This document shows, piece after piece, positions 6,024 to 62,423 of a stretch of 64,000 nucleotides of DNA. The notes beneath the pieces are model-generated. The model saw nothing but the letters and a program-made list of their open reading frames with translations, did not search any database and was not told the DNA's origin. Source of the DNA: Parachlamydiales bacterium (GTDB lineage Bacteria; Chlamydiota; Chlamydiia; Chlamydiales; Rhabdochlamydiaceae); assembly GCA_963705295.1 (NCBI GenBank), contig OY970065.1:32001-96000 (forward strand), written 5' to 3'. A program made the position numbers and the translations under genes. How positions within the stretch are numbered: the stretch's first letter is position 1; the number at the start of each line of letters is the position of its first letter.

Positions 6024-6051
6024 GATGGACCCCCATTTCGATGGGGGCATC
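6024..6051 (+). terminator. stem-loop after the beta-barrel gene
   Basis: CCCCCAT-TTCG-ATGGGGG hairpin extended by GATG/CATC; U-tract is weak. Confidence 0.5.
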
Positions 6052-6145
6052 TAAGCTTTAATTCCTTGAGCATCAGCTGTTAGCAATAATTTTACGACAT
6101 ATTTATGCTGATTTTGTCATAAAAATTGTCGCAAAAACGTCATAA

Positions 6146-6301: not shown

Positions 6302-9113
6302 TACCTAAAATTTGCCTGAGCACATAAGGCATAATACCCCCATGATGGTAGTAATCGACTTCGATGGGGGTATCTAATCTGACGATCAATGGGACCATTC
6401 TAGTTTGTCCATTTTTTTCGACTTTGAGCTGAACCTCGCTTCTGGGACCGAGGGTTCCTTCGACTGAAAAAATTTCTTCGCCGGTGATTCCTAGCGAGTC
6501 AGTACTTTCGTCATTCTTGAATTCTAAGGGAAGTACACCCATCCCAATCAAATTGCTCCGATGGATCCTCTCAAAACTCCGCGCAACGACAACGCGCACG
6601 CCGAGTAGAGCTGTCCCTTTAGCAGCCCAGTCTCGAGAACTGCCCATCCCATAATCTTTTCCAGCAAAAACAATGAGGGGGATATTTTCTCCCATATATT
6701 GTTGGCTCGCTTCGAAAATCGTGGTGATGGTTCCGTCCAAGAGAAATTTGGTATACCCTCCCTCTTTTCCCCCCGCCATTTTGTTCCGAATGCGAACATT
6801 GGCAAAGGTGCCTCGCATCATCACGTTGTGATTTCCGCGCCTACTTCCATAGCTATTAAAATCTTGGGGTTTGACGCCCAAAGAAAGGAGATATTTTCCA
6901 GCGGGGGTCTCTTCAGAAAAAGCCCCAGCAGGTGAAATGTGGTCCGTCGTGACAGAATCTCCAAAAATCGCCAATCCTCGCATCCCTGATAGTTGGGGAG
7001 AAGGTGGTAAGGTTTTTGAAAAGTTATCAAAATAAGGTGGCTTTTGAATATAGGTGCTTTTCGGATCCCATGGGTATTGGGCGGTTTTTGTCACCTTCAT
7101 CTGTTGCCAGACAGGATTATCTTGCATGATAAATGAGTACCGCTTCTTAAACATCTCGGGTTGGAGAAATTGCTCAATCTCCTTCTGTATTTCTGCAGAG
7201 GTTGGCCAGATATCTTTGAGGAAAACCGGATTTCCTTGATTATCGTCACCGACCGGTTCCTTATCAAAATCAATTTGCACTCTGCCTGCAATAGCAAAGG
7301 CAACAACGAGGGGTGGAGACATCAAAAAGTTGGCTTTAACTGCGCTATGGATTCTCGCTTCAAAATTCCGATTACCACTTAAAACGCTGGCTGCAATGAT
7401 ATCGTACTGTGAAATGGCTTTGTCAATCCTCTCTTCTAAGGGTCCACTATTTCCGATACACGTCGTGCATCCATAAGCAACCAATTGAAATCCCAGTTTA
7501 TCCAGATATTCTTGGAGCCCACTTTTCTGCAAATAATCGGTGACAACACGCGATCCGGGGGCCAAGCTCGTCTTGACCATCGAATTCACTTTTAAACCTT
7601 TTTCTACGGCCTTTTTCGCAAGCAAACCAGCTCCCAACATCACACTCGGATTACTCGTATTGGTACAACTGGTGATCGCAGCAATAACCACTGAGCCGTG
7701 CTCTAAAACAATATCGACCTTTTTTTCATCGGCATATCCTGGACTGACCACCGCTTCTGTAAACGGCCGGTTGGTCACCATCTCATCTTCACTCCAGGGT
7801 AAAACACCTCCTCCATTGAGAAATTGTTTCCCACCCGTTTCATGATGAACATTCGGTGAAAAAATTCCCGATTCGTGAATAAAAACTCTCCGGCGGAGTT
7901 CGTTTTTATCTTTCGCGTACCCACCCTCTGGCACAGGAGCCGTGAGCAAATCTTCAAATTTTTCCTTGAGATCTTGAAGTACAATCCGATCTTGCGGCCG
8001 TTTCGGTCCAGCGACACACCCTGTCACTGTCTGGAGATCGAGCTGCAACACCTTCGTGTAGTCGATCTCCCCCTTGCGAGGAATTCCAAAAAGCCCTTGA
8101 GCTTTTAAATAATCTTTGACTTGGCTGATATGGTCTTCACTTCTTCCCGTCATCCTCAAATAATCGAGTGTTTTCTCATCGCTCGGAAAAAATCCCATGG
8201 TTGCTCCATACTCCGGAGACATATTTCCAATTGTCGCCCGATCTGCCACCGACAATGTCTCTGTCCCCTCGCCAAAAAACTCGACAAATTTCCCGACAAC
8301 TTTTTCCTTTCTCAAAAGCTCCGTGATCCGCAACGTCAAATCGGTCGCCGTCACCCCTTCCTTCAATTTTCCACTCAAATGAACCCCGATGACTTCGGGC
8401 GTTTGAATCGATACAGGCTGCCCCAGCATCGCCGCCTCAGCCTCAATCCCTCCCACTCCCCAACCGACAACTCCCAAACCATTAATCATCGTGGTATGCG
8501 AATCAGTCCCTACCAATGTATCAGGAAAAAGGACCCCATTTTCTTCAATCACCACCGACGCTATATGTTCCAAATTGACCTGATGACAAATTCCAATCCC
8601 GGGAGGTACCACTTTAAAAGTCTTAAAAGCCTCCTGCCCCCATTTCAGAAACTCATACCGTTCTTTATTCCGCTGAAATTCGATCTCCAAATTAAACATG
8701 AAAGCATCATTCGTCCCCGACCTGTCAACCTGCACCGAATGATCCACCACCAAATCGACCGGCACATCCGGCTCAATCGAGCTCGCCTTCGCCCCTTGAT
8801 CTCCTATCGCATCGCGCATCGCTGCCAAATCGACCAGCAGCGGCACACCCGTAAAATCTTGCAACAACACCCGCGCCACAATAAACGGAACATCCCTCTC
8901 CGATGGCTTCATTGCATTCCACTTCGCCAACGCCTCAACATCTTCCCTCTTCACCTTCACATCATCACAATTCCGCAGCACTGACTCCAACATGATCCGT
9001 ATCGACACCGGAAGCCTCTTGATTTTCCCCATCCCTTGCTCTTCGAGCGCCGGCAAAGAATAATACTGTTTCCCAGACTCCAGTTTCTTAAGCGTCTTGA
9101 AATGATCTTGCAT
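6285..9113 (-). CDS. acnA: aconitate hydratase A
   Basis: [69 protein letters not shown]. Confidence 0.97.
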
Positions 9114-9172
9114 AAAGCCTTCTTTTCTTCCGATATAGCTTATAGTGACAAAAAAGTCTTAGAAAAAAGTTA

Positions 9173-9202
9173 TTGACATAATGTAACCAAATACATTACA
9201 AT
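9173..9202 (+). promoter_or_regulatory. sigma70/sigma66-type promoter of higBA with palindromic operator
   Basis: TTGACA(9173)-18 bp-TACAAT(9197); inverted repeat TAATGTA-N6-TACATTA (9179-9198) between the boxes. Confidence 0.7.
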
Positions 9203-9220
9203 GAGAGCAATTGAGACAAT

Positions 9221-9502
9221 GTGGCGATAAAATCTTTTAAGCACAAAGGGCTGAGAAAGTTTTTTGAATCAGGGAGTAAGGCTGGCATTCAAGCTGCTCA
9301 TCTAAAAAGGATTAAACTTATTTTAGATCTTTTGAATGCTGCTACTGAACCAAAAGATATGAACTTTCCTGGATCGGATTTTCACCCTTTGAAGGGTGAT
9401 CTTAAAGGATTTTATTCGGTCCATGTGAATGGGAACTGGACGATTATTTTTATGTTTGATAAAGGGGAACCATATAACATAGATTTAATCGATTATCATT
9501 AA
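9221..9502 (+). CDS. higB: HigB (RelE-like, plasmid killer type) toxin
   Basis: IKSFKHKGLRKFF...HPLKGDLKGFYSVHVNGNWTIIF; toxin-first order. Confidence 0.92.
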   Translation: MAIKSFKHKGLRKFFESGSKAGIQAAHLKRIKLILDLLNAATEPKDMNFPGSDFHPLKGDLKGFYSVHVNGNWTIIFMFDKGEPYNIDLIDYH

Positions 9503-9514
9503 TGGAGAATTATT

Positions 9515-9850
9515 ATGACTAAAAAAAGGAAACCGACACATCCAGGAGAGATCCTTGACGAACTCTATATTAAACCGCTTAAGCTCAATTTACAAAAACT
9601 TGCTGATAGACTTGGTATTGCTCGAAATACGTTATTCAAAATCAGGGCACGTGAGGCTAGCATTACTCCATTTCTAGCCCTTTCTCTGGCAGAAGCTTTT
9701 GATACTACACCTCAGCTATGGCTTAATCTACAAAATAATTACGATCTTTGGGTTGAGCAGCACGATCATATTCACATTATTCCCATTCTGAAGAATGGCG
9801 AAATTCTCCCAATCAAACAGAACATTGGGATCGCACGTCTTTCAGCCTAA
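9515..9850 (+). CDS. higA: HigA antitoxin (Xre HTH)
   Basis: PTHPGEIL, HTH, TTPQLWLNLQNNYDLW. Confidence 0.92.
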   Translation: MTKKRKPTHPGEILDELYIKPLKLNLQKLADRLGIARNTLFKIRAREASITPFLALSLAEAFDTTPQLWLNLQNNYDLWVEQHDHIHIIPILKNGEILPIKQNIGIARLSA

Positions 9851-9889
9851 AAAAGCCAATGCCAGAAATAGCACTGGCTTTAGGAGAAA

Positions 9890-11386
9890 TCAATCAAAGA
9901 AATTGGCAGGGATCACCGTTCCAAAAACCTGCACCAGAACATCATTGGGATCATTGCGGGCATCTAGCCATGCAACACCAATGTTACCTGTTGTTTGATC
10001 GATGGCGATTTGAGGTTCGTATTGCGTGTGTTTATTTTTGGTGATTTGAAATGGCTCGCTCCAGGTTTGGCCATCATCATCTGTAAAAGCAATAAAGATG
10101 TCGGTATTGTTCGGTTCATTCACAGGATCGAGATTATCAACATAGACCATGTAGGCACGGCCGAAGTGTTTTTTATGGGACACATAGGCAAGTCTGGGCT
10201 GACACCAGGTCTTACGATCGGGCTGAGGAGGATAGGTGGCAAAATACCCAACATTGACATCTCCAAAAAGTTGAAACTGGGTATCTTTAGGTATTTTCTT
10301 TGCTCCTTTTGGAATAAAAGAAGTCCATATAGTTGAATGATCTTGGATCGTGCTTCCCAATTCGCCATTGAAGGATGCTTGAGAAATTAAGATTCCCCCT
10401 GTTGGATTAATTGCTACGGAACCATAGCCGCCTTTTAATCCTTCAGGATTCTGAATATGAACTGGGTCTCCGAGTTGTCCATTTTTTTTCTTGGGAAAGA
10501 TAAATATTTGCGAAGGATTTTGTGTACTAGCAGCTGTAGAAACATTTCCCTGATTAAAAACACTTGCAAGCCAAACAACTTGATCATCGCCAGCAGCCAG
10601 TAAAGGATAATCATATGCAGCTTGTTTTTTACCTAATTTGATAGGATTGAAAACATATTGAACTTCGAAAGTTTTTCCATGATCTTCACTCATTGCAAGA
10701 ATTCCCATAAGAGGATGTTTACGGTTAACACTAAATACATCAAAAATACTATGAGTAAATATTGTTAAATAGGTTATATAAAGATGACCCTGAGAATCAT
10801 AAACAAGACGAAAATCTCCATTATCAAATCCTAAGGGCAATTTATTTTTGGAATTTCGAGGATTGAATATTCGGGCAAGACTTTTATTTTGTACCCAAGT
10901 TTCTCCACCATCGGATGTATTTGCAAATAACATTCCTTTGCTGAACTGATGTATTTGTCCCAAAGGCTTATTTACAAAAGAAAGAGGAACATTAAAAGAA
11001 CATACTGAAATATTATTCTTATTTGTTTTGTCTATGGCTAAAGTCGGTTCACCTTGAAAATTAAAACGATGAGGGGCAATGACCAGATTTTGACTGACGA
11101 TCACATCGTGTGGATTATTCACTTGGATAGAACTATAACCCAGGTTTGAGGTGGGTGCAGGAGGATGATTCACTAAAAGCTGAGAATTATCCGCCCAAAC
11201 ACATCCGATCTTTCCATCATGAAAATCAAATCCGAAATATTCCAAAAAGTCCGCTCCAAGTGCCGGTAGAGTTGCCGGTCCATCTGACTGGAACTCCGCT
11301 ATCTGAAAAATATGCAGATCTTTTGCCTCAAGACTTGTCAAAAGGGCAAAAATTGAAATGAGCAATGCACTCCATTTTCTTAACAT
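9890..11386 (-). CDS. secreted BNR/Asp-box (sialidase-like beta-propeller) protein
   Basis: Start moved to ATG 11386 (GGAGG RBS, signal peptide MLRKWSALL...LEA); Asp-boxes TSDGGETW, SEDHGKTF, TDDDGQTW. Confidence 0.75.
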   Translation of the reverse strand: MLRKWSALLISIFALLTSLEAKDLHIFQIAEFQSDGPATLPALGADFLEYFGFDFHDGKIGCVWADNSQLLVNHPPAPTSNLGYSSIQVNNPHDVIVSQNLVIAPHRFNFQGEPTLAIDKTNKNNISVCSFNVPLSFVNKPLGQIHQFSKGMLFANTSDGGETWVQNKSLARIFNPRNSKNKLPLGFDNGDFRLVYDSQGHLYITYLTIFTHSIFDVFSVNRKHPLMGILAMSEDHGKTFEVQYVFNPIKLGKKQAAYDYPLLAAGDDQVVWLASVFNQGNVSTAASTQNPSQIFIFPKKKNGQLGDPVHIQNPEGLKGGYGSVAINPTGGILISQASFNGELGSTIQDHSTIWTSFIPKGAKKIPKDTQFQLFGDVNVGYFATYPPQPDRKTWCQPRLAYVSHKKHFGRAYMVYVDNLDPVNEPNNTDIFIAFTDDDGQTWSEPFQITKNKHTQYEPQIAIDQTTGNIGVAWLDARNDPNDVLVQVFGTVIPANFFD

Positions 11387-11538
11387 AGATACGCCTCCAA
11401 GGTTAAAATTTAATATTACCCCCCCCCCGCAAAAAAAGAAATTAAATTTCTTCTCGTAAAAGTAATAGTAAAGCAATATAATGAAGTTTATCTGCGCGAA
11501 TCGAGAATTTTAACTGCTCGAAATTTGGAGGTTATCAC

Positions 11539-12108
11539 ATGGAAATCGATGCAATTTCATTAGAAGTGGCTTTGAATGCACTGGGACAATTGCTTACAGA
11601 AAGGAAAGATCATCATGAAGTCGTTGCAATAGGCGGAGGGAGCCTATTACTTCTTGGTCAAATAGATCGTACTACGAAAGATTTAGACATTGTTGCACTT
11701 TTTAATGCCGGTCAATTGGTTTCGGCCCATCCATTACCCTCAAGTCTGCTTCAAGCAGTAAAAGAAATAGCAAATGCTTTTGAACTGGGTGAAGAATGGA
11801 TCAATGAAGGTCCATCCTCTTTATTTGAAGCAGGACTACCGTCTGGATTTGAAACACGCTTAGAAACACGTTATTATGGTGGCCTGATTGTTCATCTTGC
11901 CGGCCGTTTTGATCAAATTTGCTTTAAACTTTATGCAGCGGTAGATCAAGGCCCTCGTAGTAAACATTTTGCCGATTTGAAATCTCTACTTCCGACGCTA
12001 GACGAATTATTAGAGGCAAAGAAATGGTGTTTAACTCAAGATCTCTCTGAGCCCTTTCGTGAAGAATTAAATAAGCTCATAACTCCTCTTGGAGTTCCAA
12101 ATGAGTAG
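11539..12108 (+). CDS. nucleotidyltransferase-fold protein (DUF6036/AbiEii-like)
   Basis: GGAGG RBS; VVAIGGGSLLL...RTTKDLDIV (GG...DxD), FKLYA, KHFADL. Confidence 0.75.
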   Translation: MEIDAISLEVALNALGQLLTERKDHHEVVAIGGGSLLLLGQIDRTTKDLDIVALFNAGQLVSAHPLPSSLLQAVKEIANAFELGEEWINEGPSSLFEAGLPSGFETRLETRYYGGLIVHLAGRFDQICFKLYAAVDQGPRSKHFADLKSLLPTLDELLEAKKWCLTQDLSEPFREELNKLITPLGVPNE

Positions 12109-13006
12109 TCTAAGGGAAAAATTTGATAAAAACCTTCTGGATCTTGCTTGGAGTCTTTGGACTGAATTGGGTGTTGCAGGAGTTAAAAGGAAACATCAAA
12201 AATTTTTAATTATTCCAGAAGAGCTCGTTATATTAACCGCAGCACTTGGAGATATAGATCCTCGTCTTCGTGATGAAGCACTGGACTGGTGCAGTCGAAA
12301 TCACCATTTTATTTCAATTAGCCGCTTAAAAACACTCGCAAAATCTTTTGATAGATCGATACAACACTCTTTTTCAAAATTTTCTGCCACATTGAATTCG
12401 GTATCAAGCGCAAATTGGCCAATTTTAATAAAGGCTGACCCTCTCAAGTTTATACCAAGTAAAAAATCTAAATCTCCCCCATTTCAATTACCTGCTCTAC
12501 TCTGTTTTAGACTCCGTGAATTATTTGGTGTTGGTGCACGGGCTGATTTAATTTTATTTTTTTTGTCGCAAGAAAAGGTTGATTTTGCTGTATCGGATGT
12601 AACAGAAATCGGTTATAGCAAACGAACTCTAGCCAATGTATTGGAAAGTTTTACTCATGCAGGAATCTTCAATGTTTTTATGGCTCGCAATCAACAACGT
12701 TATCATTTTGCAAAACGAAATCAAATTATAAGAATTTTAGATCCGCTTCCCGAATTCATGCCACCTTGGCGTCACATCATTGAAGTCCTCTTATCATTAC
12801 GAGCTTGTATTCAACACATTGAAGATAAGTCCGAAAGTTCAAAAGTCATAGAAATTCGAAATACTTTGATGGGACTTCAAAATAAGTTAAATAAGTTGAA
12901 GCTTATTGCCCCACCATTCCAGGCCGATTTAAAAGTATATTTGAATGTCTTTAGTGAGTGGATACTACGCCTATCTGGATCACTTGCTCAAGGCGATTTC
13001 CAATAA
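12101..13006 (+). CDS. hypothetical protein with probable wHTH; coupled partner of the nucleotidyltransferase
   Basis: ATG 12101 after GGAG overlaps the upstream stop; ARADLILFFL...AVSDVTEIGYSKRTLANVLESFTHAG resembles an HTH. Confidence 0.6.
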   Translation: MSSLREKFDKNLLDLAWSLWTELGVAGVKRKHQKFLIIPEELVILTAALGDIDPRLRDEALDWCSRNHHFISISRLKTLAKSFDRSIQHSFSKFSATLNSVSSANWPILIKADPLKFIPSKKSKSPPFQLPALLCFRLRELFGVGARADLILFFLSQEKVDFAVSDVTEIGYSKRTLANVLESFTHAGIFNVFMARNQQRYHFAKRNQIIRILDPLPEFMPPWRHIIEVLLSLRACIQHIEDKSESSKVIEIRNTLMGLQNKLNKLKLIAPPFQADLKVYLNVFSEWILRLSGSLAQGDFQ

Positions 13007-51346: not shown

Positions 51347-51977
51347 TCGTCCTGACCGCCTAGATCCCGTTCGCCGCGTTGGAGAAGAGAAACTTCCTGG
51401 AGGACCCACACCTCAGCCTCCTGGGCCTCAACCGTTTGAAAAATATATGGAACAGGCAGGTCAGCAGCCTGCTCAAGCCGGTAAAGCCCCTGGAGTTTCC
51501 CCTTTTGAACTCCCCCAGGCGACCACTCCTCTAGGCCCTCCGACGTTTGATAGCTTACTTGGGCAAGTGAAATCGGCCCAAGGGATGCTCGGTGATATCA
51601 ACTCAGGTTTGCAAACGAAAAACCTTAAATTGAAACCGTCGCAACGGTACCTTTTGCGCAACAAACTGACCGACGCCAATGCCCACCTCCAGGCAGCCAA
51701 TGCTAAAATGGGCGCTGAAGTCGTTGCACCTCCCCCCTCAACGGGCGGAGGTATCATGGGAAAATTTCTCGATTATGTTGCCCAAGGACAAACCAACCTC
51801 GCTGCAGCTCAACAGCAGATCGGGAGTCTCAAAGATAAAGGAATGAGTCTCAAGCCTGCCGATTTTCTGGCCGTCCAATTAAAACTAGCACATGCGCAGC
51901 AAGAGATCGAATACGCTTCGATCATGCTCTCTCAAGCCGTTAAGGATATGCAAACCCTCTTTGGCGTCCAATTGTAA
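51339..51977 (+). CDS. T3SS-associated protein (CT668-like)
   Basis: Pro-rich N-terminus; LKPADFLAVQLKLAHAQQEIEY..LFGVQL; directly before cdsN. Confidence 0.75.
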   Translation: MVDRPDRLDPVRRVGEEKLPGGPTPQPPGPQPFEKYMEQAGQQPAQAGKAPGVSPFELPQATTPLGPPTFDSLLGQVKSAQGMLGDINSGLQTKNLKLKPSQRYLLRNKLTDANAHLQAANAKMGAEVVAPPPSTGGGIMGKFLDYVAQGQTNLAAAQQQIGSLKDKGMSLKPADFLAVQLKLAHAQQEIEYASIMLSQAVKDMQTLFGVQL

Positions 51978-53293
51978 TGGATCCCTCTTCTCATTTTGAC
52001 AAACTCCTCAACCAACTGGAAGATCTAGAACTCACCACTGTGCATGGGCGCATCACCGAAATTGTCGGGATGCTCATTCGAGCGGTGGTCCCTCAGGTGA
52101 GGATGGGAGAAATTTGCCTCATCAAACGAGACGTTGAACCTCTGATGGCCGAAGTTGTCGGTTTTACGAAAGATGAAGTGATTCTCTCCCCTCTTGGTGA
52201 AATGTCTGGGATTGGACCGTCCTCGGAGGTCATCCCGATGCGCATTCCGATGCGGATTAAGGTAGGACCCGCTCTACTGGGCCGAATTCTCAATGGACTC
52301 GGCAATCCGATCGATGAAGAAGTCAAAGGGCCCTTAGTTCTCGAAGAAACGTTTCCTGTTATCAATTCTCCTCCTGATCCTTTAAAACGGCAGATGATCG
52401 ATGAACCCCTTTCTGTGGGTGTTCGTTGTATTGATGGCGTGCTGACCGTGGGTAAAGGGCAGCGGATGGGAATTTTCTCAGCTGCTGGTGTCGGAAAATC
52501 GACTTTGCTAGGGATGATTGCTCGGTATGCAAAAGCTGATGTGAATGTGATCGCTCTCATCGGGGAGAGGGGCCGCGAAGTCCGGGAATTCATCGAAAAA
52601 GATTTGGGACCCGAAGGATTAGAACGATCGGTCATCATCGTTTCGACATCCGACCAAGCCGCTCAAATGAGACTGAATGCCGCATATGTGGGCACCGCTA
52701 TCGCCGAGTATTTCCGCGAGCAGGGCAAAACAGTCATTTTGATGATGGACTCGGTCACCCGTTATGCACGGGCGCTCCGAGAAATCGGTCTTGCAGCAGG
52801 AGAGCCACCGGCCCGTGCTGGATATACCCCCTCGGTTTTTGCAACCCTTCCTCGCTTACTCGAACGTTCTGGAAACTCAGAACATGGTTGGATGACCGCT
52901 TTCTACACTGTCCTTGTTGCCGGCGATGACATCAATGAACCGATCTCCGATGAGGTCAGATCCATTCTCGACGGTCAGATTATTCTCTCTTCCGAGCTTG
53001 CTCAAGAAAACCACTATCCCGCCATCGATGTCCCTCGCTCTCTGAGCCGCGTCCTCGGCAGTATCGTCGATGAAGAACATCTCCAACTCATTGGAAAAGT
53101 TCGGGAAGTTCTTACCAATTACAAAAAAATCGAACTCTTGCTCCGGATTGGAGAGTATAAACCGGGCTCTGATAAAAATGCCGACTTTGCGATCAAATAC
53201 ATCGATAAAGTTAAACGATTCTTAAAACAAAACGTTGAAGAGCGTTCTTCCTACGAAGAAACCCTCCAACAGCTCCGCGCTCTGTTCAGATAA
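51977..53293 (+). CDS. sctN: T3SS ATPase CdsN/SctN
   Basis: GQRMGIFSAAGVGKST, ALIGERGREVREF, MMDSVTRYARA, LPRLLER, RSILDG. Confidence 0.96.
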   Translation: MDPSSHFDKLLNQLEDLELTTVHGRITEIVGMLIRAVVPQVRMGEICLIKRDVEPLMAEVVGFTKDEVILSPLGEMSGIGPSSEVIPMRIPMRIKVGPALLGRILNGLGNPIDEEVKGPLVLEETFPVINSPPDPLKRQMIDEPLSVGVRCIDGVLTVGKGQRMGIFSAAGVGKSTLLGMIARYAKADVNVIALIGERGREVREFIEKDLGPEGLERSVIIVSTSDQAAQMRLNAAYVGTAIAEYFREQGKTVILMMDSVTRYARALREIGLAAGEPPARAGYTPSVFATLPRLLERSGNSEHGWMTAFYTVLVAGDDINEPISDEVRSILDGQIILSSELAQENHYPAIDVPRSLSRVLGSIVDEEHLQLIGKVREVLTNYKKIELLLRIGEYKPGSDKNADFAIKYIDKVKRFLKQNVEERSSYEETLQQLRALFR

Positions 53294-53297
53294 TACT

Positions 53298-53804
53298 ATG
53301 CAAGAACCAGAAAAATACCCGTTGGATCAACTTCTCTCCATCAAACTAAAACGGCTTGAAGAGTCGGAAAAAGTTCTTTTGGAGAAAAAAAAAATCCTCG
53401 CCGAAGAAGAAAAAAAACTCGCCGATCTTGAAAAAAAACGGGATGAAGTTAAAGAACATTATCAAACAAAATTGAATCAACTCCGAGAAAAACTCGATGC
53501 TGGTACCGCGACCGATAAAATCCAACAAATGAAACAATATCTCAAGCTTGTTGCTGAAGATCTTAAAGTTGAAGAGCATAAAGTTAAAAACCAACAAAAA
53601 GCGGTCGAAACTGCGAACAACCAAGTCGAAATCGCACGTCAAGATCTGTTTAAAAAACAAAAAGATGTGGAAAAATTAAAGATCCATCATAAAGAATGGG
53701 AAAAAGAGATGCATGCCATCGCTGAGCATAAAGAAGGCATTGTCCATGACGAAATTGGCGGTGCCATGCATATCCTGAAAAAAAAGAAAAAAAACCATGG
53801 CTGA
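53298..53804 (+). CDS. cdsO: T3SS stalk protein CdsO/SctO
   Basis: YPLDQLLSIK, charged coiled coil, HDEIG; start placed at ATG 53298. Confidence 0.85.
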   Translation: MQEPEKYPLDQLLSIKLKRLEESEKVLLEKKKILAEEEKKLADLEKKRDEVKEHYQTKLNQLREKLDAGTATDKIQQMKQYLKLVAEDLKVEEHKVKNQQKAVETANNQVEIARQDLFKKQKDVEKLKIHHKEWEKEMHAIAEHKEGIVHDEIGGAMHILKKKKKNHG

Positions 53805-54765
53805 CGTGCCCAAAGTACCAGGACCCACCCCCCAACAACCATCTCGAGGACCCCGCGAACCGGCAAAACCGGGTACCGATAAATTCAAAGAACTCATGAA
53901 AGTGGGAGAACCCGAAGAACAGCAAAAAAAAAGACCCCAGCAAAAAGAAGAAGAAAAGGAAGAAAAAAAAGCTAAAGCCCAACCCAAAGAAGAGGGTATG
54001 AAGACACCGCCCCTACCTAAAGAGCCGGAAAGGACTAAAGAACCGGAAAAGCTTCCTCATGTCAAGGCCGGTGAACCACCACAAAAGAAAGAATTCAAAC
54101 CCAAAAAGCTCCCCGAGAAAGTTCCAGAACCTGAAGAGGAGGAAGAAGAAGAGGCCCCCCCTCCTGCTGGAGAAAAAGAGGAGCAAGTCGAAGAGCAGCC
54201 CCCACCCCCTCTTTTTATACCAGAAAAAAAAGTGCAGCCTGAAAAGGGTCCTCCCGAGAAAAAAGTTGCCGGACCAAAACATGAAAAAAAGATCGAGAAA
54301 CCGACCAAAGAAGCGGAAGCTCCACTGACTGCTGGTCTTGGGCCCCTCTTTATTCCACCTGCGACGGAATCAGCTCCTGCCTACACTCTCCTAAAACCCG
54401 AGGCTTTGGCCCTCTTTGAAAAAATGGTCAGCCAGATCGTTGTCATGCATACAAGCGGTATCACGGAAACGACCTTCACTTTAGATACCCCTGAATTTGC
54501 TAGTTCTCCTTTCGCGGGGGCCCGTGTCATCATTCGGGAATATAGCACGGCCCCTCTCGTCTACAATATTGAGTTTGAAGGGTCTTCACAAAATATTGGA
54601 ACCTTCGCCCAAAATATTGGCTCTCTTCGTGCCGCCTTCGATAGTGAAAAACGGAACTTTGCGATTAATAGAATCGACACCCGCCTCCTAGAACGGGGTT
54701 CCGAACGGTCCCGCCCCGTCGAAAGAAAAGAAAAACCGTCCGATAAAGGCGAAGAGGGATTCTAG
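53797..54765 (+). CDS. cdsP: T3SS CdsP-like (CT671-like) needle-length/ruler protein
   Basis: Pro/Glu/Lys low-complexity N-terminus and compact C-terminal domain; follows cdsO. Confidence 0.7.
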   Translation: MADVPKVPGPTPQQPSRGPREPAKPGTDKFKELMKVGEPEEQQKKRPQQKEEEKEEKKAKAQPKEEGMKTPPLPKEPERTKEPEKLPHVKAGEPPQKKEFKPKKLPEKVPEPEEEEEEEAPPPAGEKEEQVEEQPPPPLFIPEKKVQPEKGPPEKKVAGPKHEKKIEKPTKEAEAPLTAGLGPLFIPPATESAPAYTLLKPEALALFEKMVSQIVVMHTSGITETTFTLDTPEFASSPFAGARVIIREYSTAPLVYNIEFEGSSQNIGTFAQNIGSLRAAFDSEKRNFAINRIDTRLLERGSERSRPVERKEKPSDKGEEGF

Positions 54766-54862
54766 TGACTACTCCCAGGCCATCTAATCCTTAGACATCA
54801 AAAATTTAGAGCGTTTCGAGATTCAATTGAAGATATTTCAAACATAAATTATTATTTTTCGC

Positions 54863-54891
54863 GTTTAGCGGATTGGTGTCAATCTGCAAAC
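54863..54891 (+). terminator. hairpin downstream of cdsP
   Basis: GTTT-A-GCGGATTG-GTGT-CAATCTGC-AAAC. Confidence 0.4.
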
Positions 54892-54895
54892 ACTT

Positions 54896-55055
54896 ATTAA
54901 CCCGAGACGTCAAAAGGTGACAAGATGCGCTGCGAGGCAAAGCCAGATTGATTCTCGCGAGGAATAACATTCTTGAATACGAAGGATTCCGAGCGAGAAT
55001 CGATATGGCGAAGCCGCAGCAAGCAGGTTGTCACCTTTTGACGTCTCGGGTTAAT
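54896..55055. mobile_element. 160-bp palindromic MITE-like / structured repeat, copy 2
   Basis: Perfect arms ATTAACCCGAGACGTCAAAAGGTGACAA (30 bp with the flanking TT/AA); five substitutions relative to copy 1. Confidence 0.85.
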
Positions 55056-55078
55056 AATACAATTTTATGAGGTAATTT

Positions 55079-55309
55079 ATGAGAATTGATCCAGTTAATT
55101 TTTTTCCAAAGTTCCCAGAGGACAAGTCTACAGAAAAACTAACCGATCCTTATGATTTGAATATTGAATTTGATGTTATAGATTCTGAAACTTTGGTCGA
55201 TCAGAAAGACGTACCTCCTACTGGTAACTCATGTGTTGCTGGTTCTACCTGTTGGTGTACAACTGGAGGAAACACATGCAGCACGACTTGTGTTGGTGGA
55301 AAATGTTAA
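55079..55309 (+). CDS. lanA: class I lanthipeptide precursor
   Basis: GAGGT RBS; acidic leader with YDLNI (FDLD/FNLD-like); core TGNSCVAGSTCWCTTGGNTCSTTCVGGKC (6 Cys, 10 Ser/Thr); directly upstream of lanC-lanB. Confidence 0.9.
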   Translation: MRIDPVNFFPKFPEDKSTEKLTDPYDLNIEFDVIDSETLVDQKDVPPTGNSCVAGSTCWCTTGGNTCSTTCVGGKC

Positions 55310-55355
55310 ACAATCTTTCGATAGAATAGATATATTAGGATATTAGAGATGCGAT

Positions 55356-56741
55356 GTGATTGATTGCGAGGTGCCATTTCAAGAGAAGGTCTTTTTTTTA
55401 GCAAAAAAAATGGCTGATAAATTGAGTAATCCTGATGAATTATTAAGCTATATTTTAGATCCTGGTAATTTAAATCCCCATTCGGTGATACCAGGGCCTT
55501 ACTGGGAAGAGCTTTCTTTAGCGAGCGGTTATCCAAGCATTCTATTGTTTTTTTCAACATTGGACAAAATATTTCCAGAAGAAAACTGGGATGAAATTTC
55601 ACATAAATATGTTTTAAAGATTAAAGATATCCTAGAAAAAAGGCTCAGAGAAGGAAACGCTTTTCAAGCTTCTCCTTCTCTATTTTCTGGATTATCAGGT
55701 ATTTGTTTTTCCCTTCAACATGCCTCAAAGGGATATACGAGGTACTCTAGACTTATTCATACTTTGAATTCTTTCCTCGTGGATCAAACGGAAAGATTCT
55801 ATCTTTCTCCCCTTATGAAAAAGATTGAAAACAAGGAACCGTATCCAACAGCCTTATTCGATTTAATACAAGGAATCATTGGTGTGGGTCTATATGAACT
55901 TCAAATGGTTGATTCTGGTTTATTTTCCGAACAAATACAGAAAATTCTAGAAGTTCTCGTCTCTATGACATTTTTCTTGCATATCAGAAACTATAGTGTA
56001 GTTGGATGGTTTACCCCAGCCGATTTTCAATTTACTGAAAAAGACAGAATGCAGTTTTCCAATGGAATTTTTAATTTGGGTTTAGCTCATGGAATTTCAG
56101 GAGTTCTTGCATTTTTGTCTCTAGCTACCTTACGTGGTATCGTAGTAGATGGCCAGTTAGATGCTATCAAAAGAATTACACTTTGGGTTAAAAGTAAGCG
56201 CGTAAAATTAGAAGGATCCTTTTTATGGCAGAACTGGATTTCTTTTGAAGAGGAAGTGGGAGAAATAACATCAAATACTTGTCTTTCTAGGGATGCTTGG
56301 TGTTACGGAACAGCAGGGGTTGCAAGAAGTCTTTTTTTAGCCGGAAAAGCTTTAAAAGATAAAGAAACCCAAGACTTTTCATTAGAATCCTTTTCTTCAA
56401 TTTTCAAGCGAAGTGAAGAAAGCTGGTATTTACCAGGTCCTACTTTTTGCCATGGAATCTCAGGACTTTTAATGATTACTTTTATGATGGCGCAAGATAC
56501 TCAGGATCTTTGTTTGAAAGAAAAAGTTCATTTGCTCCAAAATCGCCTCATGTCCTTTTATCGGCCTGAAAGTTTTTTTGGCTTCAATGATGCCGCTCTT
56601 TCTTCTAAGGGGGGCTATATTGAAATAAGTAAAGCGGGCCTATTGGATGGTGCTACTGGTGTCCTATTATCTCTTTTATCTAGTTGTGGTGGTTGTTCTT
56701 CTTGGGCTATTCCTTTTTTAATTGCAGAAACATCAAAATGA
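55356..56741 (+). CDS. lanC: lanthionine synthetase C (cyclase)
   Basis: SLFSGLSG, DLIQGIIG, LGLAHGISG, DAWCYG, FCHG (Zn ligands), GLLDGATG. Confidence 0.93.
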   Translation: MIDCEVPFQEKVFFLAKKMADKLSNPDELLSYILDPGNLNPHSVIPGPYWEELSLASGYPSILLFFSTLDKIFPEENWDEISHKYVLKIKDILEKRLREGNAFQASPSLFSGLSGICFSLQHASKGYTRYSRLIHTLNSFLVDQTERFYLSPLMKKIENKEPYPTALFDLIQGIIGVGLYELQMVDSGLFSEQIQKILEVLVSMTFFLHIRNYSVVGWFTPADFQFTEKDRMQFSNGIFNLGLAHGISGVLAFLSLATLRGIVVDGQLDAIKRITLWVKSKRVKLEGSFLWQNWISFEEEVGEITSNTCLSRDAWCYGTAGVARSLFLAGKALKDKETQDFSLESFSSIFKRSEESWYLPGPTFCHGISGLLMITFMMAQDTQDLCLKEKVHLLQNRLMSFYRPESFFGFNDAALSSKGGYIEISKAGLLDGATGVLLSLLSSCGGCSSWAIPFLIAETSK

Positions 56742-59700
56742 TTACACCAAAGAACGATAGACTCTTTTTGTCTGCTCCATTTTTTTTAGTAAGAATTCCA
56801 ACTCTTTCGAAAGATGATTTTTTCTTTCTTTTTCAAGATCTTAAAACCCGACTTTTACCATTTTACCTAAATGAACCAGTTCTTCAAGAAGCTCTTTTAA
56901 TTGCTTCTCCCTCTCTTTCCCAAGCTTTGGAAGGTAGGGGGAGATTAGATGAGAAAAAAACAAAACAAATCACCTCCAGTCTTCTTAAATATATATCTAG
57001 AATGGCAACACGTGCTACACCCTTTGGTCTTTTTTCTTCTGTGTCGATTGGCTCATGGGGAAAAACATTCGGCGATCTGGATCTAACTAAGATTCGTAAA
57101 AGAGCACGGCCGGATATGGAGTGGTTATTTAAAATTTCGGAGCTTATTTATTCTGACAATTCAATATCAGAATTAATTTTAATTAAAAGACATCCACTTG
57201 TTTTTTTTAGTAAAGATCGTATTATTCTGAATTACAGATTGAAGAAAGACGCAGAGGATAACATCTCGAGTGTTTCTATAGGTTCTAGTTCTCTAATGGA
57301 CAAAATATTTGAATTTACTGAAACTCCAATTCCTTTTGTGGAACTAAATAATAAGTTAATGGAATATTTTCCATCATTAGATAAAAATAAAACAATAAAT
57401 GTTATTAAAACACTTATAGAGCAACAATTTTTATGCCCTGCCTTACTCCAGTCTTTAGTAACGGATCAGGCCTTTCTTGATTTTCTCATGAATATTCCAT
57501 CAATTTGTTCAATTCTTCCTGATTTGCAGAAAATTTCTTCTTTAATTCAAGAATATAACACTCAGCTTGTTGGAGAAAGTGGCTCTCTTCTTAAAAATCT
57601 TCAAGAAGAACTGGGAAAAATCAAACCATCAAATACACCGCTTCAAGTGGATTGTGTATATTCGGGCAACAAAATCACTATTTCCCCATCGATAGCTAAA
57701 GAGCTGGAAGAATCAGCAGAAATACTTTGGAGGATATCATCTTTTTCTGATTTTTCTTTTCTTAAGTCTTATCATCAGAGATTTCTAGAGAAATACGGGA
57801 TTAATAGACTCGTACCTCTGTTACAGCTTTTGGATGCTAATGAAGGTCTGGGGATTCCCAATGAATATAACCCGTCTTACCCTTACCAGAATATAGATGT
57901 GAACCCTAAGGCATGGCAATGGAGACAGTTGCTAAATAACAAGCTTTTTTCTTGTATAAGAGATGGGAAAAAAGAAATTATACTGACCGAAGCCGATCTC
58001 GAAGGAAAAATAGATTTCACCAAAGCCCTTCCTTCAATTGAACTTTACTGCGAAGTGCTTGCCGATAGTGCTGAAAATGTGGATAAAGGAGAATTCCTTC
58101 TACACCTTCCCTTTAGCGGTTGGCAAGCTGGTGCTAGTTTTGGCAGATTTGCGGATATACTGGAAAACCCTTCCAAAAAAGCTTTAGAAAGCCTTCTCCG
58201 CAAAGAAGAAGATCTTGATATTAATTGTTTATTTGCAGATGTCTCATTTTTCCCATCATCACCCAGATTATGCAACGTTACAATGCATCCTAGACTAAGA
58301 CGTTACACGATGGACATTGGTTTTGCTAAGGAAAACAATGGAACTATTAAGATACAAGATGTTTATGTAGGTGCAAAATTTAATCGTCTTTATCTTACTT
58401 TAAAAAATATCAATAAAGAACTCATTATTACTGCAAATAATCTCCTTCGTTCTGACTTAGCCCCCACACCTGTCAGATTTTTACGTGATGTGTCAAAAAT
58501 GAAATATCAAATGCTGTATTCTTTTTCCTGGCCTGCTTTAGAAGAAGCTGTCTTCTTGCCACGAGTTAAATATAAGAGAAGTGTTTTTTTTGCAGCCCGT
58601 TGGAAATTAATTCCTGCATTAGAAAAGATAAACCCAAAGGAAAAAGAAGACCAAATAAAGCTTAAGTTTCTTGACTGGGCAAAAAAATGGGAAATTCCTC
58701 GCTATGTCTATATTTATGAATTAGACCAAGGTATGTTATTAGATTTAACACACGCAGCCCATTTAAATGAAATCTGCTCTCAAATAAAGAAAGGCAAAAC
58801 CCTAATATTAATAGAAAAATTAAACCAGGAAAATGGTGATTGGATAAAAAGTCAAAGAGGAACCCATTGCTGTGAATTTATTTTTCCCCTGCTTAAAAAT
58901 CCCAAATACAGTTTACCCGAAGAAATAGAGTTTCCTCAGCCAGACTCTGAAATTAAAACAGAAGATCGGAGGAAACTCCCGGGAAGTGAATGGCTCTACG
59001 TCAAATTTTATTTAGAATGGAAGCGAGAAGATAAATTTTTAGCTAATCATTTATTACAATTTATAATGCCATTCATACAAAATAAAGTAATTAAAAAGTG
59101 GTTTTTTGTTAGATATAATGATGAAAATGGAGATCATCTGAGAGTAAGGTTTTTATTGTCTGAGTATCTTCATACAGATTTTCTTTCTCCTTTCCATAAA
59201 TGGACAACTTCCCTCTTCGAAAAACAGGTAATTCATGATTTACATTTCTGTACTTATGAAAAAGAAATTGAAAGATATGGGGGAATAAATGTAATTGAAG
59301 AAGCAGAAAACTTTTTTTGCGCTGATTCTAATACAGCACTTTCTTTTATTCTAGCTTCTTTATATAAAAAACACACCCTTCCTAGCTATGTGATCGCAGC
59401 TCTAAGTATCATTGAACTCTTAAAAAGATTTGGTTTAGGTATAAATGATCAAGTTTCCTTATTTAATAATTTTAATCTGGATACAACCCAATTAAAAGGT
59501 TACCGATTATGGAAATCCGAGCTTCTTTCTTTAGTGTCAGCCATATTCGATCATTCGAACCCTAATTCAGAAAGCTTAGGACCTTTGGAAATTATATTAG
59601 AAGCTTGTAACCAAAGGTTGAATGCTCAAAGAGCATATTTGGAAAAAATAATCACATTGCAAAAAGAGCAAAAGCTGTCTGCTTCTGTAGAACAGATCTA

Positions 59701-59848
59701 CGATAACCTTATTCACATGCATTGCAATAGGGTGATGGGGTTTAACACCAAGCTAGAACAAAAAGCGCGGCTTTATGCTGCTGCATCCTTAAATGCTCTT
59801 TTGAATAAAGAAAAATTACCGAGAGAAAATAATGCAGTTCTTGTTTAG
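56738..59848 (+). CDS. lanB: lantibiotic dehydratase LanB (glutamylation and elimination domains)
   Basis: YISRMATRATPFGLF, FGRF, FLPRV, WLYVKFY, WFFVRY..HLRVR, YEKEIERYGG, IHMHCNR; ATGA overlap with lanC. Confidence 0.93.
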   Translation: MITPKNDRLFLSAPFFLVRIPTLSKDDFFFLFQDLKTRLLPFYLNEPVLQEALLIASPSLSQALEGRGRLDEKKTKQITSSLLKYISRMATRATPFGLFSSVSIGSWGKTFGDLDLTKIRKRARPDMEWLFKISELIYSDNSISELILIKRHPLVFFSKDRIILNYRLKKDAEDNISSVSIGSSSLMDKIFEFTETPIPFVELNNKLMEYFPSLDKNKTINVIKTLIEQQFLCPALLQSLVTDQAFLDFLMNIPSICSILPDLQKISSLIQEYNTQLVGESGSLLKNLQEELGKIKPSNTPLQVDCVYSGNKITISPSIAKELEESAEILWRISSFSDFSFLKSYHQRFLEKYGINRLVPLLQLLDANEGLGIPNEYNPSYPYQNIDVNPKAWQWRQLLNNKLFSCIRDGKKEIILTEADLEGKIDFTKALPSIELYCEVLADSAENVDKGEFLLHLPFSGWQAGASFGRFADILENPSKKALESLLRKEEDLDINCLFADVSFFPSSPRLCNVTMHPRLRRYTMDIGFAKENNGTIKIQDVYVGAKFNRLYLTLKNINKELIITANNLLRSDLAPTPVRFLRDVSKMKYQMLYSFSWPALEEAVFLPRVKYKRSVFFAARWKLIPALEKINPKEKEDQIKLKFLDWAKKWEIPRYVYIYELDQGMLLDLTHAAHLNEICSQIKKGKTLILIEKLNQENGDWIKSQRGTHCCEFIFPLLKNPKYSLPEEIEFPQPDSEIKTEDRRKLPGSEWLYVKFYLEWKREDKFLANHLLQFIMPFIQNKVIKKWFFVRYNDENGDHLRVRFLLSEYLHTDFLSPFHKWTTSLFEKQVIHDLHFCTYEKEIERYGGINVIEEAENFFCADSNTALSFILASLYKKHTLPSYVIAALSIIELLKRFGLGINDQVSLFNNFNLDTTQLKGYRLWKSELLSLVSAIFDHSNPNSESLGPLEIILEACNQRLNAQRAYLEKIITLQKEQKLSASVEQIYDNLIHMHCNRVMGFNTKLEQKARLYAAASLNALLNKEKLPRENNAVLV

Positions 59849-59861
59849 TTGGCCCCTTGAT

Positions 59862-60260
59862 TCAGTTATGAAAGACAAATCTATCTGAGTCCATGAGCTC
59901 TACTCGAGTAATTGTTTTAAGCAAACTTGGGATATCATCAAAATTCTCTTGATCGAGAGTCATAGTGTTGCCATTACGATACTTGATCACGATGTTGCTA
60001 GGTTCTACCCTTAAATCCTCAGAAGTTGATACAACACGAACTTTCATTTCTCTTGGGCTATTAATGAGTTCAATTCTTAATGTTTTATTGCCGAAAGTAT
60101 GCGTATATACATTTTGCCCGGTTTGAATAAAAATAGAACTGCAATTTCTCGTATCTGCTGCATTTGCATTAGATCTTTGTTGTGACTCGAGAGCTTTTGT
60201 ATCTCCCGTCCTGGAATAGTGATCAGCTAATTTCCTAGATACATATGGTGGAATCGCCAT
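59862..60260 (-). CDS. small protein downstream of the M4 protease; N-terminus resembles the protease propeptide
   Basis: AGGAGG RBS; MAIPPYVSRKLADHY versus FIPPNLEEKLLRHY. Confidence 0.7.
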   Translation of the reverse strand: MAIPPYVSRKLADHYSRTGDTKALESQQRSNANAADTRNCSSIFIQTGQNVYTHTFGNKTLRIELINSPREMKVRVVSTSEDLRVEPSNIVIKYRNGNTMTLDQENFDDIPSLLKTITRVELMDSDRFVFHN

Positions 60261-60273
60261 AAAAAGACCTCCT

Positions 60274-61497
60274 TTAACTATCTGTTTTTACAGAATTCAC
60301 CCCTAAAAAGCTGCCTACGCAGAATCCTAACAGGAAGCTACCTCCAACCATCAAACCTACTGCAAGACGATAATCTGGAGCGGTTTTAGCTTGTTTTGAT
60401 TTCCTTCGAAGATCAACCCCTACGTCAAACCATGCTTTATTCACAATGTTCTGGATTCCTTCAGGATATTGTAAATCTTTTGCTGCCTGAATAGTACGTC
60501 CCGCAAAAGCACTGAAGTCATCCTGCCTTTGAGAATGGTTGAGCGCTTCGTACCAAATTTTACCAGGTCTCTCCCAAGAATTCCCTCCGATATTCATAGC
60601 AGTGAGAAAGAAGGCATGATTCGGAATGCCTGAGTTTGTATGCACTCCTCCATTATCATCACCAATAGAGGTGATATAAAAATCTCTCATATGCTTAGGT
60701 TGAGGATCTTGCCCTAAAATAGGATGATCGAAAGCACTGCCGGGATCTTGCATTGACCGAAGTGCTCCGCTTTTCTTGTCATTGACGATTAATCCATCCC
60801 CAATAAACCAATTAGCAGTATTTGCTGGAGTTGAGTTCAAATGATGCTTCATTTGAATGGCAAAAACATCAGACATCGATTCGTTTAAAGCACCGCTTTG
60901 ATACATATATTCAAAATCCGCAGTATACTGAGTGACTGCATGCCCGAGTTCATGAGTTGTTACATCCTGATTAAGAACAAGAGGGTTAAAAATATTTGGG
61001 TCCACTTCTCCAAAATAGACGGTTTCGGTAACTGGGTGCCAATAAGCATTATTGAAAGCACCGTCAAAATGAGTATATGCTCGCATTAGTTTTGTTGAAT
61101 TATCTACTGGGTATCTTTGAAAGATAGTGCTCGAGAACACATCAACCCTTTTCATGTTATCAAAGCAAGTTTTAGCAGCAGCATCTGGCCCAAAAGTACC
61201 TGTGCTAGAAATGACCAATTTAGGAGGGGTTCTTGAATAATCCCAAATTTCGATCGGTGAAGGGGTACCTGGTGCTATTGGAGAGATCTTCTTAGCAGCT
61301 CTGTATTCAGATGTTGTACGAAGATCTCTTAAAGCTTTAAGAACTCCAATCGACATTTGCTGCCTAATTAATTTACTGAATAGGCTAGTATCCTTAGTTT
61401 GTTGTGATAGATAATGTCTTAAAAGTTTCTCTTCTAAATTTGGAGGAATGAAAGAATAAGAAGGTAGACCTGCTGTTCCTGATGTTGCCATAAACAT
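60274..61497 (-). CDS. M4-family (protealysin-like) zinc metalloprotease with C-terminal TM segment
   Basis: NNAYW, HELGH, GALNESMSD, ALRSM, DNGGVHTNSGIPNHAF; IPP propeptide motif; no Sec signal; hydrophobic tail. Confidence 0.92.
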   Translation of the reverse strand: MFMATSGTAGLPSYSFIPPNLEEKLLRHYLSQQTKDTSLFSKLIRQQMSIGVLKALRDLRTTSEYRAAKKISPIAPGTPSPIEIWDYSRTPPKLVISSTGTFGPDAAAKTCFDNMKRVDVFSSTIFQRYPVDNSTKLMRAYTHFDGAFNNAYWHPVTETVYFGEVDPNIFNPLVLNQDVTTHELGHAVTQYTADFEYMYQSGALNESMSDVFAIQMKHHLNSTPANTANWFIGDGLIVNDKKSGALRSMQDPGSAFDHPILGQDPQPKHMRDFYITSIGDDNGGVHTNSGIPNHAFFLTAMNIGGNSWERPGKIWYEALNHSQRQDDFSAFAGRTIQAAKDLQYPEGIQNIVNKAWFDVGVDLRRKSKQAKTAPDYRLAVGLMVGGSFLLGFCVGSFLGVNSVKTDS

Positions 61498-61619
61498 ACT
61501 CCCTGTTTGATAGAACTAAAATTCAAAAAAACTATGCAAAAAAATGACTATTAACCACAACCTTTATCAGCTAGATTTTTTTCATTCTTTAATTTCAGTC
61601 ACTTGACTATAATTATAAC

Positions 61620-62423
61620 ATGAAAAAATTACTTGCTCTCCTCTTGCTCATTTTACAAAATACCGTTATGGCGATTCCCTTCGAAGATCATACAATCCCG
61701 TCCAACGCATTAGCCGAGCTGCTGGCGTTCTTTAACATTCCCGAAGACCAAAAAGTTGCACAGACTCAGCAACAATGGCTCAGAAAGGGTGGGAAAGAGC
61801 GATGGGAGATGGAAGAACTTACAGAAGATAGAAGACGATTTGTCCTAGATTGGGCGAAGAAGCAAGGTCTCTACACTGCCTGGAAAGCTTCGCAACCCAG
61901 TTATGATAAAGCCCTTATTTTAGGTGCAAATACGTATCATATGGAGACCCGTCTGGCCTATCTAAAAAAACTCTACCAAGACGGAATCCGTTTCAAAGAA
62001 ATCGTATGGCTAGTCGGCGAAAGACCCCTCGATGCTCGGGTCGATGGCCTCATGGATGTGTGTAAAACAGAATCTCAGGCTGCTCGGCACATTTGGGCAC
62101 ATGCCGATCTCCCTCCAGATATGAAACTCGTGCCAGTCCAATTTGTCGATTCTCCTATGAAGACCGAAAATGGCATCCTTAAACGTCCCACAACAGATGA
62201 CACCATCATCGACTGGTTGAAAACAACACCTGCACCCTGCACATCCCTTTTCATCTCCGATCAACCGTTCTGCGGCTATCAATTTGCCGTCATCAAAACT
62301 CTCCTGCCCTACACATTCCAGTTCGATGTCGCCGGCGATGGCGCTGATCCCTCCAGCCACTCCTCCGCCGCCGCCATCACCCTCGACGCCATCGCCCGCT
62401 GGATTTATCAAGAAAATATATAA
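61620..62423 (+). CDS. secreted hypothetical protein
   Basis: Signal peptide MKKLLALLLLILQNTVMA; alpha/beta pattern (ALILGA, GERPL, RPTT, SDQPF). Confidence 0.7.
   Translation: MKKLLALLLLILQNTVMAIPFEDHTIPSNALAELLAFFNIPEDQKVAQTQQQWLRKGGKERWEMEELTEDRRRFVLDWAKKQGLYTAWKASQPSYDKALILGANTYHMETRLAYLKKLYQDGIRFKEIVWLVGERPLDARVDGLMDVCKTESQAARHIWAHADLPPDMKLVPVQFVDSPMKTENGILKRPTTDDTIIDWLKTTPAPCTSLFISDQPFCGYQFAVIKTLLPYTFQFDVAGDGADPSSHSSAAAITLDAIARWIYQENI

Follow-up and report, generated by a model that had tools for sequence, protein, structure and literature searches.

Class I lanthipeptide gene clusters are already known from the Chlamydiota and occur fairly often among the environmental members of this phylum. 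In an in silico study, Marsh et al. (2010) described lanA, lanC and lanB genes in Parachlamydia acanthamoebae and named the Chlamydiae as one of four phyla that have type 1 clusters (PMC3091789). Dharamshi et al. (2022) list regions of the antiSMASH class 'lanthipeptide-class-i' in their Data S10 for Parachlamydiaceae, Rhabdochlamydiaceae, Sororchlamydiaceae and Anoxychlamydiaceae (PMC9666466), nisin-like clusters in Chlamydiota feature in a 2025 mBio article (PMC12506125), and a lanthionine synthetase has been noted in a dinoflagellate symbiont (PMC11317633). The main text of Walker et al. (2020) makes no mention of Chlamydia (PMC7268733). Literature searches that had most subscription journals outside their coverage found no experimentally characterised chlamydial lanthipeptide, in line with a preliminary description of the DNA studied here, which knew of none. 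Here we analyse a lanA-lanC-lanB cluster in a stretch of 64,000 nucleotides (hereafter the window; contig OY970065.1, positions 32,001 to 96,000) from the genome of a Parachlamydiales bacterium of the family Rhabdochlamydiaceae (assembly GCA_963705295.1). As read from its sequence, this is quite probably a minimal class I lanthipeptide gene cluster in working order, which would belong to a chlamydial lineage of such systems and have been acquired comparatively recently.

The P. acanthamoebae cluster comes from the same phylum as the window and has the same A-C-B gene order, and its LanB and LanC proteins were judged closest to those of Firmicutes (PMC3091789), in agreement with our own comparisons, in which Bacillota come closest among the non-chlamydial groups. 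The best match to the window LanB in any source is 43% identical and carries the name 'Chlamydiales bacterium'. The window and P. acanthamoebae clusters are therefore not orthologous copies, as judged from this identity and not from a direct alignment. Set against the P. acanthamoebae cluster, the window precursor has a core without a detectable relative. The nisin cluster has NisT, NisP, NisI, NisFEG and NisRK, whereas the window has no counterpart of any of these and its lanA is not of the gallidermin/nisin family. The enzymes of the nisin system (Protein Data Bank (PDB) entries 4wd9, 6m7y and 2g02), chain 9g04 and chain 8byk (MadC of Clostridium maddingley, as the title of PMC9889658 suggests) belong to the same families as those of the window, and the catalytic residues that we checked are identical. 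The nisin system and the window are also alike in having a leader box that is followed by a core rich in Cys, Ser and Thr.

The locus is a real and intact lanA-lanC-lanB class I lanthipeptide cluster (Table 1). It combines a two-domain LanB that retains its catalytic residues, a separate LanC with a zinc site and an adjacent precursor gene with a leader box, which define the class; the usual but non-defining accessories LanT, LanP, LanI and LanFEG are lacking at the locus. LanB matches PF04738 (E-value 5e-141, covering residues 64-696 in the long frame) and PF14028 (2e-48), and over its whole length it matches the structures 9g04 (3e-109), MibB 5ehk (8e-77) and NisB 4wd9 (1.5e-54). The longest lanB frame opens at a TTG codon at position 56684, and the lanC stop codon and the ATG at 56738 overlap as ATGA (56738-56741). 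LanB residues R92, T94, D126, D305, R470, R804, E843, R846 and H993 are identical to the aligned residues of NisB. Among the essential residues of NisB, we take R87, T89, D121, D299 and R464 to serve glutamylation and R786, E823, R826 and H961 to serve elimination. The lanB frame contains no in-frame stop codons, compared with a mean of 75.6 and a minimum of 48 in 2000 mononucleotide shuffles of the lanB DNA. LanC has the zinc ligands H245, C316, C365 and H366 (numbered from the GTG start; H-C-C-H in the ligand columns), its GLAHG, WCYG and CHG motifs line up with the same motifs of NisC and chain 8byk, and its structure matches include PDB 8byk (1e-56) and NisC 2g02 (2e-25). The preliminary description had reported an intact lanA, a LanC with its motifs and a full-length LanB coupled to it by ATGA, all of which lie where it had placed them, and its view of the locus as a minimal class I system in a chlamydial genome is borne out.

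The LanA leader was compared with those of other chlamydial clusters using a hidden Markov model (HMM) of 17 columns, trained on 42 precursors from the other chlamydial loci; the window lanA was left out. The comparison set comprised 42 loci, namely 40 regions surrounding LanB matches of other genomes of the phylum, locus L001 and a second cluster from the same genome as the window. Candidate precursors were small open reading frames (ORFs) beside lanB or lanC that combined a Cys-rich tail with a [FY]D[LI]D-like box; the ORFs used for training were selected by this motif filter, and filter matches without a plausible box were removed by eye. The 42 accepted ORFs come from 28 of the 42 loci (14 loci have none) and have in common the leader box (D)(P/L)(Y/F)DLD(I/L/V). 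Among the 1459 frames of the window, the model ranks the lanA frame first (E-value 0.012, followed by 0.49 for the next frame), and the LanA box, DPYDLNIE, corresponds to the FNLD/FDLD box that class I leaders have. The last 31 residues of LanA include six Cys and ten Ser/Thr residues. No hairpin was found in the interval between lanA and lanC (z +1.09), and an Rfam scan of positions 54000-62000 returned no family.

Judged by database searches, the LanA core is an orphan six-cysteine core without a detectable relative. At E-values up to 1, LanA has no match to the gallidermin/nisin family (TIGR03731, PF02052), which is matched by five of the 17 chlamydial precursors tested (that of the window and 16 from other loci). 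The LanA core is weakly similar to the precursors of loci L040 and L054 (E about 1e-4). The gallidermin/nisin-type precursors that score above the cut-off are located at L037 11948-12151, L043 12941-13141, L062 5298-5531, L071 5284-5502 and L075 10473-10679. At another locus, L065 (G170:C1), six tandem precursor genes with near-identical leaders and differing cores lie beside one lanC-lanB pair (9087-12875). At L052, a 188-residue ORF with Nif11 domains (5961-6527), which may be a different type of precursor, adjoins a lanC-lanB pair for which the search detected no YDLD-type precursor.

These features suggest how the product would be made. The ribosome would synthesise the 76-residue LanA, whose leader LanB would recognise through the D-P-Y-D-L-N-I-E box. 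LanB would then glutamylate Ser and Thr residues of the core with Glu-tRNA(Glu) and eliminate the glutamate to give dehydroalanine and dehydrobutyrine, and the zinc enzyme LanC would add the six core cysteines to the dehydro residues, forming up to six thioether rings. We infer from the sequence that this chemistry takes place, how many rings form and where the leader is cleaved. The product might be made and serve as something other than an antibiotic, acting on the host or in the inclusion, or functioning as a signal or structural peptide. Such a role would fit a core that has no relatives and, unlike the five precursors mentioned above, lies outside the lipid II-binding gallidermin/nisin family, and it would fit a producer whose phylum is, to our knowledge, known only as intracellular symbionts. 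However, the sequence gives no hint of a host target and the position of the cluster beside secretion genes is not conserved in the 42 other loci, and we regard a non-antibiotic role as unlikely. The preliminary description had named the host or co-infecting microbes as possible targets.

The relationships of LanB point to a source within the phylum. All named matches that rank above the first Bacillota match (Marininema, 31% identity) carry chlamydial names, while many matches are nameless. The closest named non-chlamydial group is paenibacillin-type and from Bacillales, represented by PaeB of Paenibacillus polymyxa (P0074), with 30-32% identity over 97-99% of the length. In a FastTree phylogeny of 55 rows, for which we chose the outgroup ourselves from named matches only and left out nameless matches and other phyla, one branch with a support of 100 separates the 44 chlamydial LanBs from the 11 Bacillota LanBs, the paenibacillin-type proteins included. 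The position of the window LanB inside the chlamydial side is not settled by the tree, where family codes are interleaved. The donor pool looks chlamydial from these comparisons. The preliminary description had named free-living Bacillota, Actinomycetota and Bacteroidota as the groups from which such systems are best known; with the nearest LanB relatives being chlamydial, transfer from one chlamydia to another appears to be the better reading. Our reading would be that of an old chlamydial gene pool with transfers within the phylum and a fairly recent arrival in this genome.

The composition of the locus differs from that of the genome, as the preliminary description had noted in calling it an AT-rich block. 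The GC (guanine plus cytosine) contents of lanA, lanC and lanB are 0.381, 0.362 and 0.342, compared with 0.438 for the genome. The AT-rich block extends over approximately 6.5 kb from lanA to an M4 peptidase gene, with GC contents of 34-40% (0.371 for a 132-residue ORF and 0.400 for the M4 gene), and the next gene is at 0.483. Taken together, lanC and lanB have a GC content of 0.349, a difference of -0.089 from the genome; the difference between lanC-lanB and their flanks has a median of -0.009 across 43 loci and is 0.000 for the genome's second cluster. LanB (PF04738) is present in two of the 19 genomes of the genus, this one included, and was not found in 17 of the 18 congeners, several of the other genomes being incomplete.

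The surroundings of the block are those of a broken operon. The genes to the left of the cluster encode SctN (the ATPase of type III secretion), a YscO-like protein and a 322-residue protein. In six of six congeners, sctN, sctO, the 322-residue gene, sctQ, a pkn5 homologue and the secretin gene are colinear on one strand, with sctQ following cdsP by 0.3-3.9 kb on the same strand, whereas here an inverted sctQ is found at a distance of approximately 20 kb. This places the block at the breakpoint of a rearrangement that interrupted the secretion operon. Between the end of this operon and lanA, 22 bp before lanA and at the left edge of the AT-rich block, is a near-perfect palindromic repeat (folding energy -104 kcal/mol, z -15.4) that matches no Rfam family. 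Counting this copy, the repeat occurs at 41 sites of the genome, each with at least 126 nucleotides aligned and at least 84% identity; the copy at 709435-709597 is 64 bp upstream of lanC in the second cluster. No flanking direct repeats and no att-like sites were found at the edges of the block. The low GC content, the lack of LanB in 17 of 18 congeners and the operon-break position together support the horizontal acquisition that the preliminary description had proposed. The cluster would have come from a chlamydial LanB/LanC lineage; its arrival would be comparatively recent, on an AT-rich block of 6.5 kb that also carried the M4 metallopeptidase gene and landed beside the dispersed palindromic repeat at the breakpoint that splits sctN-sctO-cdsP from sctQ-pkn5-sctC. 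A more general link between lan clusters and secretion genes was considered and ruled out, since no other lan locus has secretion neighbours (no homologues of sctN, sctO or cdsP in the other 42 loci).

The sharp drop in GC content is also what foreign contamination or a chimeric assembly join could produce, and it is the only observation in favour of either. The genome belongs to a chlamydia and is no chimera: its 2.13 Mb form a single contig (94.7% complete) with an estimated contamination of 0.48%, and the check for a chimeric contig gave no sign of one. The genome's own dispersed repeat abuts lanA, the left-hand SctN is 77-86% identical to those of six congeners and the right-hand secretin and pkn5 homologues are 54-72% identical, and the nearest LanB relatives are chlamydial. 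The probability of an artefact of this kind is negligible.

Directly after lanB, in the same AT-rich block, are an M4 thermolysin-type metallopeptidase gene and a 132-residue ORF, both of which the preliminary description missed. The M4 peptidase has HELGH and NESMSD motifs, an intact zinc site and a hydrophobic segment at its C-terminus; its N-terminus shows nothing signal-like. None of the 18 congeners yielded this peptidase. For the 132-residue ORF there was no Pfam match at E-values up to 0.01, no usable Atlas match and no homologue in the 43 lan loci. Families of LanT, LanP, LanFEG, immunity proteins and regulators are absent from the ten flanking ORFs scanned; the preliminary description's statement that these are lacking stands, except that it overlooked the adjacent M4 peptidase, for which our survey showed no conserved link to lan clusters. 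In the whole genome there are no C39 peptidase and no S8 protease domains, so maturation and export must be non-standard, as had been supposed. The three ATP-binding cassette (ABC) exporters of the genome, at 0.88, 1.03 and 1.09 Mb, are far from both clusters. Export would most likely proceed through one of these general exporters or by release on cell lysis, and the leader would most likely be removed by a non-dedicated protease.

The co-acquired M4 peptidase could instead be a dedicated leader peptidase, replacing LanP with an enzyme of a new family, and the 132-residue ORF could encode its partner or inhibitor. Both genes share the AT-rich block (0.400 and 0.371, compared with 0.483 for the next gene), only this genome among the 19 of the genus has the M4 gene, and the peptidase has an intact zinc site and a C-terminal membrane anchor in a genome without S8 or C39 proteases. 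However, M4 homologues are present in 48 of the 401 sampled genomes of the phylum, often in multiple copies, and they occur together with LanB in five genomes, compared with a chance expectation of 41 x 48 / 401 = 4.9. In the four other genomes with both genes (G110, G133, G220 and G373) these are on different contigs, and none of the 43 lan loci yielded an M4 homologue. The M4 gene is convergent with lanB and therefore not in the same operon. Because the co-occurrence is at chance level and on different contigs, a role as leader peptidase is doubtful, and given the lack of co-location in the four genomes we reject the idea that lan clusters have the M4 peptidase as a conserved partner. Signal-less M4 peptidases are multi-copy in some chlamydial genomes (G063, G312 and G055), at up to four places per genome. 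It is improbable that three elements hold jointly, namely an old lan lineage of environmental chlamydiae that works inside an obligate intracellular bacterium and lacks its own exporter, protease and immunity genes, a tail-anchored M4 peptidase that came with the system and acts as a leader peptidase of a new kind, and an orphan six-cysteine peptide that acts in the host cell or inclusion and not as a classical secreted antibiotic.

Across the phylum, PF04738 was detected in 41 of 401 sampled genomes (40 above the cut-off) and in 30 of 212 genera. It is present in 38 of the 335 sampled genomes that are at least 90% complete, and in none of the 30 and none of the 17 genomes of two large families. 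The LanB and LanC proteins of the other chlamydial loci are 26-46% identical, and lanC is usually directly upstream of lanB. These clusters share their leader box with the window and, as in the window, usually have no protease or exporter. A Pfam scan of neighbouring genes, which covered 126 of 282 ORFs at 18 of 41 loci, identified a LanD-like flavoprotein at four loci, an ABC exporter at two and a beta-lactamase-family protein at two, and no S8 or C39 protease at any of the 18. The scarcity of accessories at the scanned loci indicates that the minimal architecture is the rule in the phylum. Some chlamydial clusters add a LanD-like flavoprotein, gallidermin/nisin-type precursors, an ABC exporter or a second LanC-like gene that lacks the zinc ligands, while the window has none of these and is the only one of the lan loci examined with M4 peptidase or secretion-gene neighbours. 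The novelty implied by the preliminary description is not supported by this survey, in which most clusters are similarly minimal, nor by the 2010 P. acanthamoebae cluster and the 2022 catalogue; the survey and the LanB phylogeny were both among the checks that it had named.

Several further observations concern the composition of these clusters. The LanD-like flavoprotein gene lies between lanB and lanC in L037, L043, L038 and L039. Of 51 chlamydial LanC-like ORFs, 35 show the H-C-C-H set in the ligand columns. Eleven loci (L039, L042, L043, L044, L046, L050, L051, L058, L062, L071 and L075; also of note are L073 and L074) have an intact LanC gene and beside it another LanC-like gene that has lost the zinc ligands, which may represent a conserved non-catalytic LanC paralogue; in two loci there is no LanC-like copy with the full ligand set. 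Broken lanB genes were found in L071 (G233:C1; 7222-10071, with four in-frame stops) and L001 (8007-11158, in two frames, a break that may be a sequencing error), and the precursor genes beside them stay open. In the second cluster of the same genome, the lanB product has a gap in its N-terminal domain match, and three small ORFs encode four FDLD/YDLD leader-core units with short tails of two to four Cys residues. This cluster also has a gene for a 771-residue TPR/AAA protein, and its GC content equals that of its flanks.

Some results weigh against a functional cluster of chlamydial lineage. The E-value of the leader box is modest, and LanA matches neither the curated Pfam and NCBIfam precursor families nor the FDLD-leader model NF038155 at E-values up to 1. 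No relatives of LanA were found in a word-indexed search of 5.8 billion proteins, and an exhaustive phmmer search of 1.84 billion representatives gave a single match, P0123, a 556-residue tandem-repeat translation that is unlike a lanthipeptide and that we rejected as spurious. Promoter-like sites (17, compared with 20.4 expected) and terminator-like sites (seven, compared with 5.5) are at chance level, the phylogeny is from FastTree only with its outgroup restricted to named matches, and the accessory families and the C39 and S8 proteases are lacking as described above.

The same lack of an exporter, immunity gene and regulator in the block might indicate a recently imported passenger that is silent or decaying and yields no product in this host. 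The patchy distribution (LanB in one of 18 congeners), the broken lanB genes elsewhere in the phylum (four in-frame stops in G233, a split gene in L001) and the promoter-like sites not exceeding chance would all be in keeping with this. However, three frames have stayed intact in DNA of 35% GC, in which a shuffled lanB has approximately 76 stops, and the catalytic residues checked are all kept, as are the ATGA overlap of lanC and lanB and the ribosome-binding site of lanA. The minimal architecture is the norm of the phylum and not a sign of decay, given that only two of the 18 scanned loci have an ABC exporter and none has an S8 or C39 protease. A silent passenger is accordingly quite improbable, and a functional cluster is the reading that we favour.

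Table 1. Location of the lan cluster, its elements and associated features. Positions are those of the window unless stated otherwise; the second cluster is given in genome positions.
Feature	Position	Strand	Description and basis
lanA	55079-55309	+	76-residue precursor peptide; ORF and translation
GAGG ribosome-binding site	55069-55072	+	6 nucleotides ahead of the lanA ATG; read from sequence
lanA leader recognition box D23-P-Y-D-L-N-I-E30	55145-55168	+	Leader HMM and alignment
lanA probable core, residues 46-76	55214-55306	+	Residue count
lanC, lanthionine cyclase	55356-56741	+	461 residues, GTG start; PF05147, E-value 2e-60
lanB, predicted tRNA-Glu-dependent dehydratase, full length	56738-59848	+	Glutamylation and elimination domains; 1036 residues
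132-residue ORF	59862-60260	-	Convergent with lanB, downstream of the M4 gene; GC 0.371
M4 thermolysin-type zinc metallopeptidase	60274-61497	-	407 residues; PF02868, 1.6e-44; PF01447, 7.8e-12
Palindromic dispersed repeat	54894-55057	.	165 nucleotides, arms 54894-54965 and 54986-55057; like a miniature inverted-repeat transposable element (MITE) or repetitive extragenic palindrome (REP)
Split secretion genes, left part	51977-54765
Split secretion genes, sctQ-to-secretin part	68834-75951 (L082 8834-15951)		Beyond the window; inverted
Second class I cluster, same genome	702710-709371 (L006 2710-9371)		lanC 378 residues, lanB 883 residues

The locus is an example of a known system and not a discovery. 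Its points of interest are the orphan core, the operon-break position next to a repeat that also precedes the second cluster, and the way in which an intracellular bacterium that lacks exporter and protease would use such a peptide. With three genes and an orphan core, it is a compact and intact candidate for heterologous expression. About one in ten of the sampled species of the phylum has LanB, and this 2.1-Mb genome has two clusters. Possible targets of the peptide are competing bacteria in the same host, the host itself or the lipid II-dependent division of the bacterium that makes it, and such roles would bear on the competition and persistence of these symbionts.

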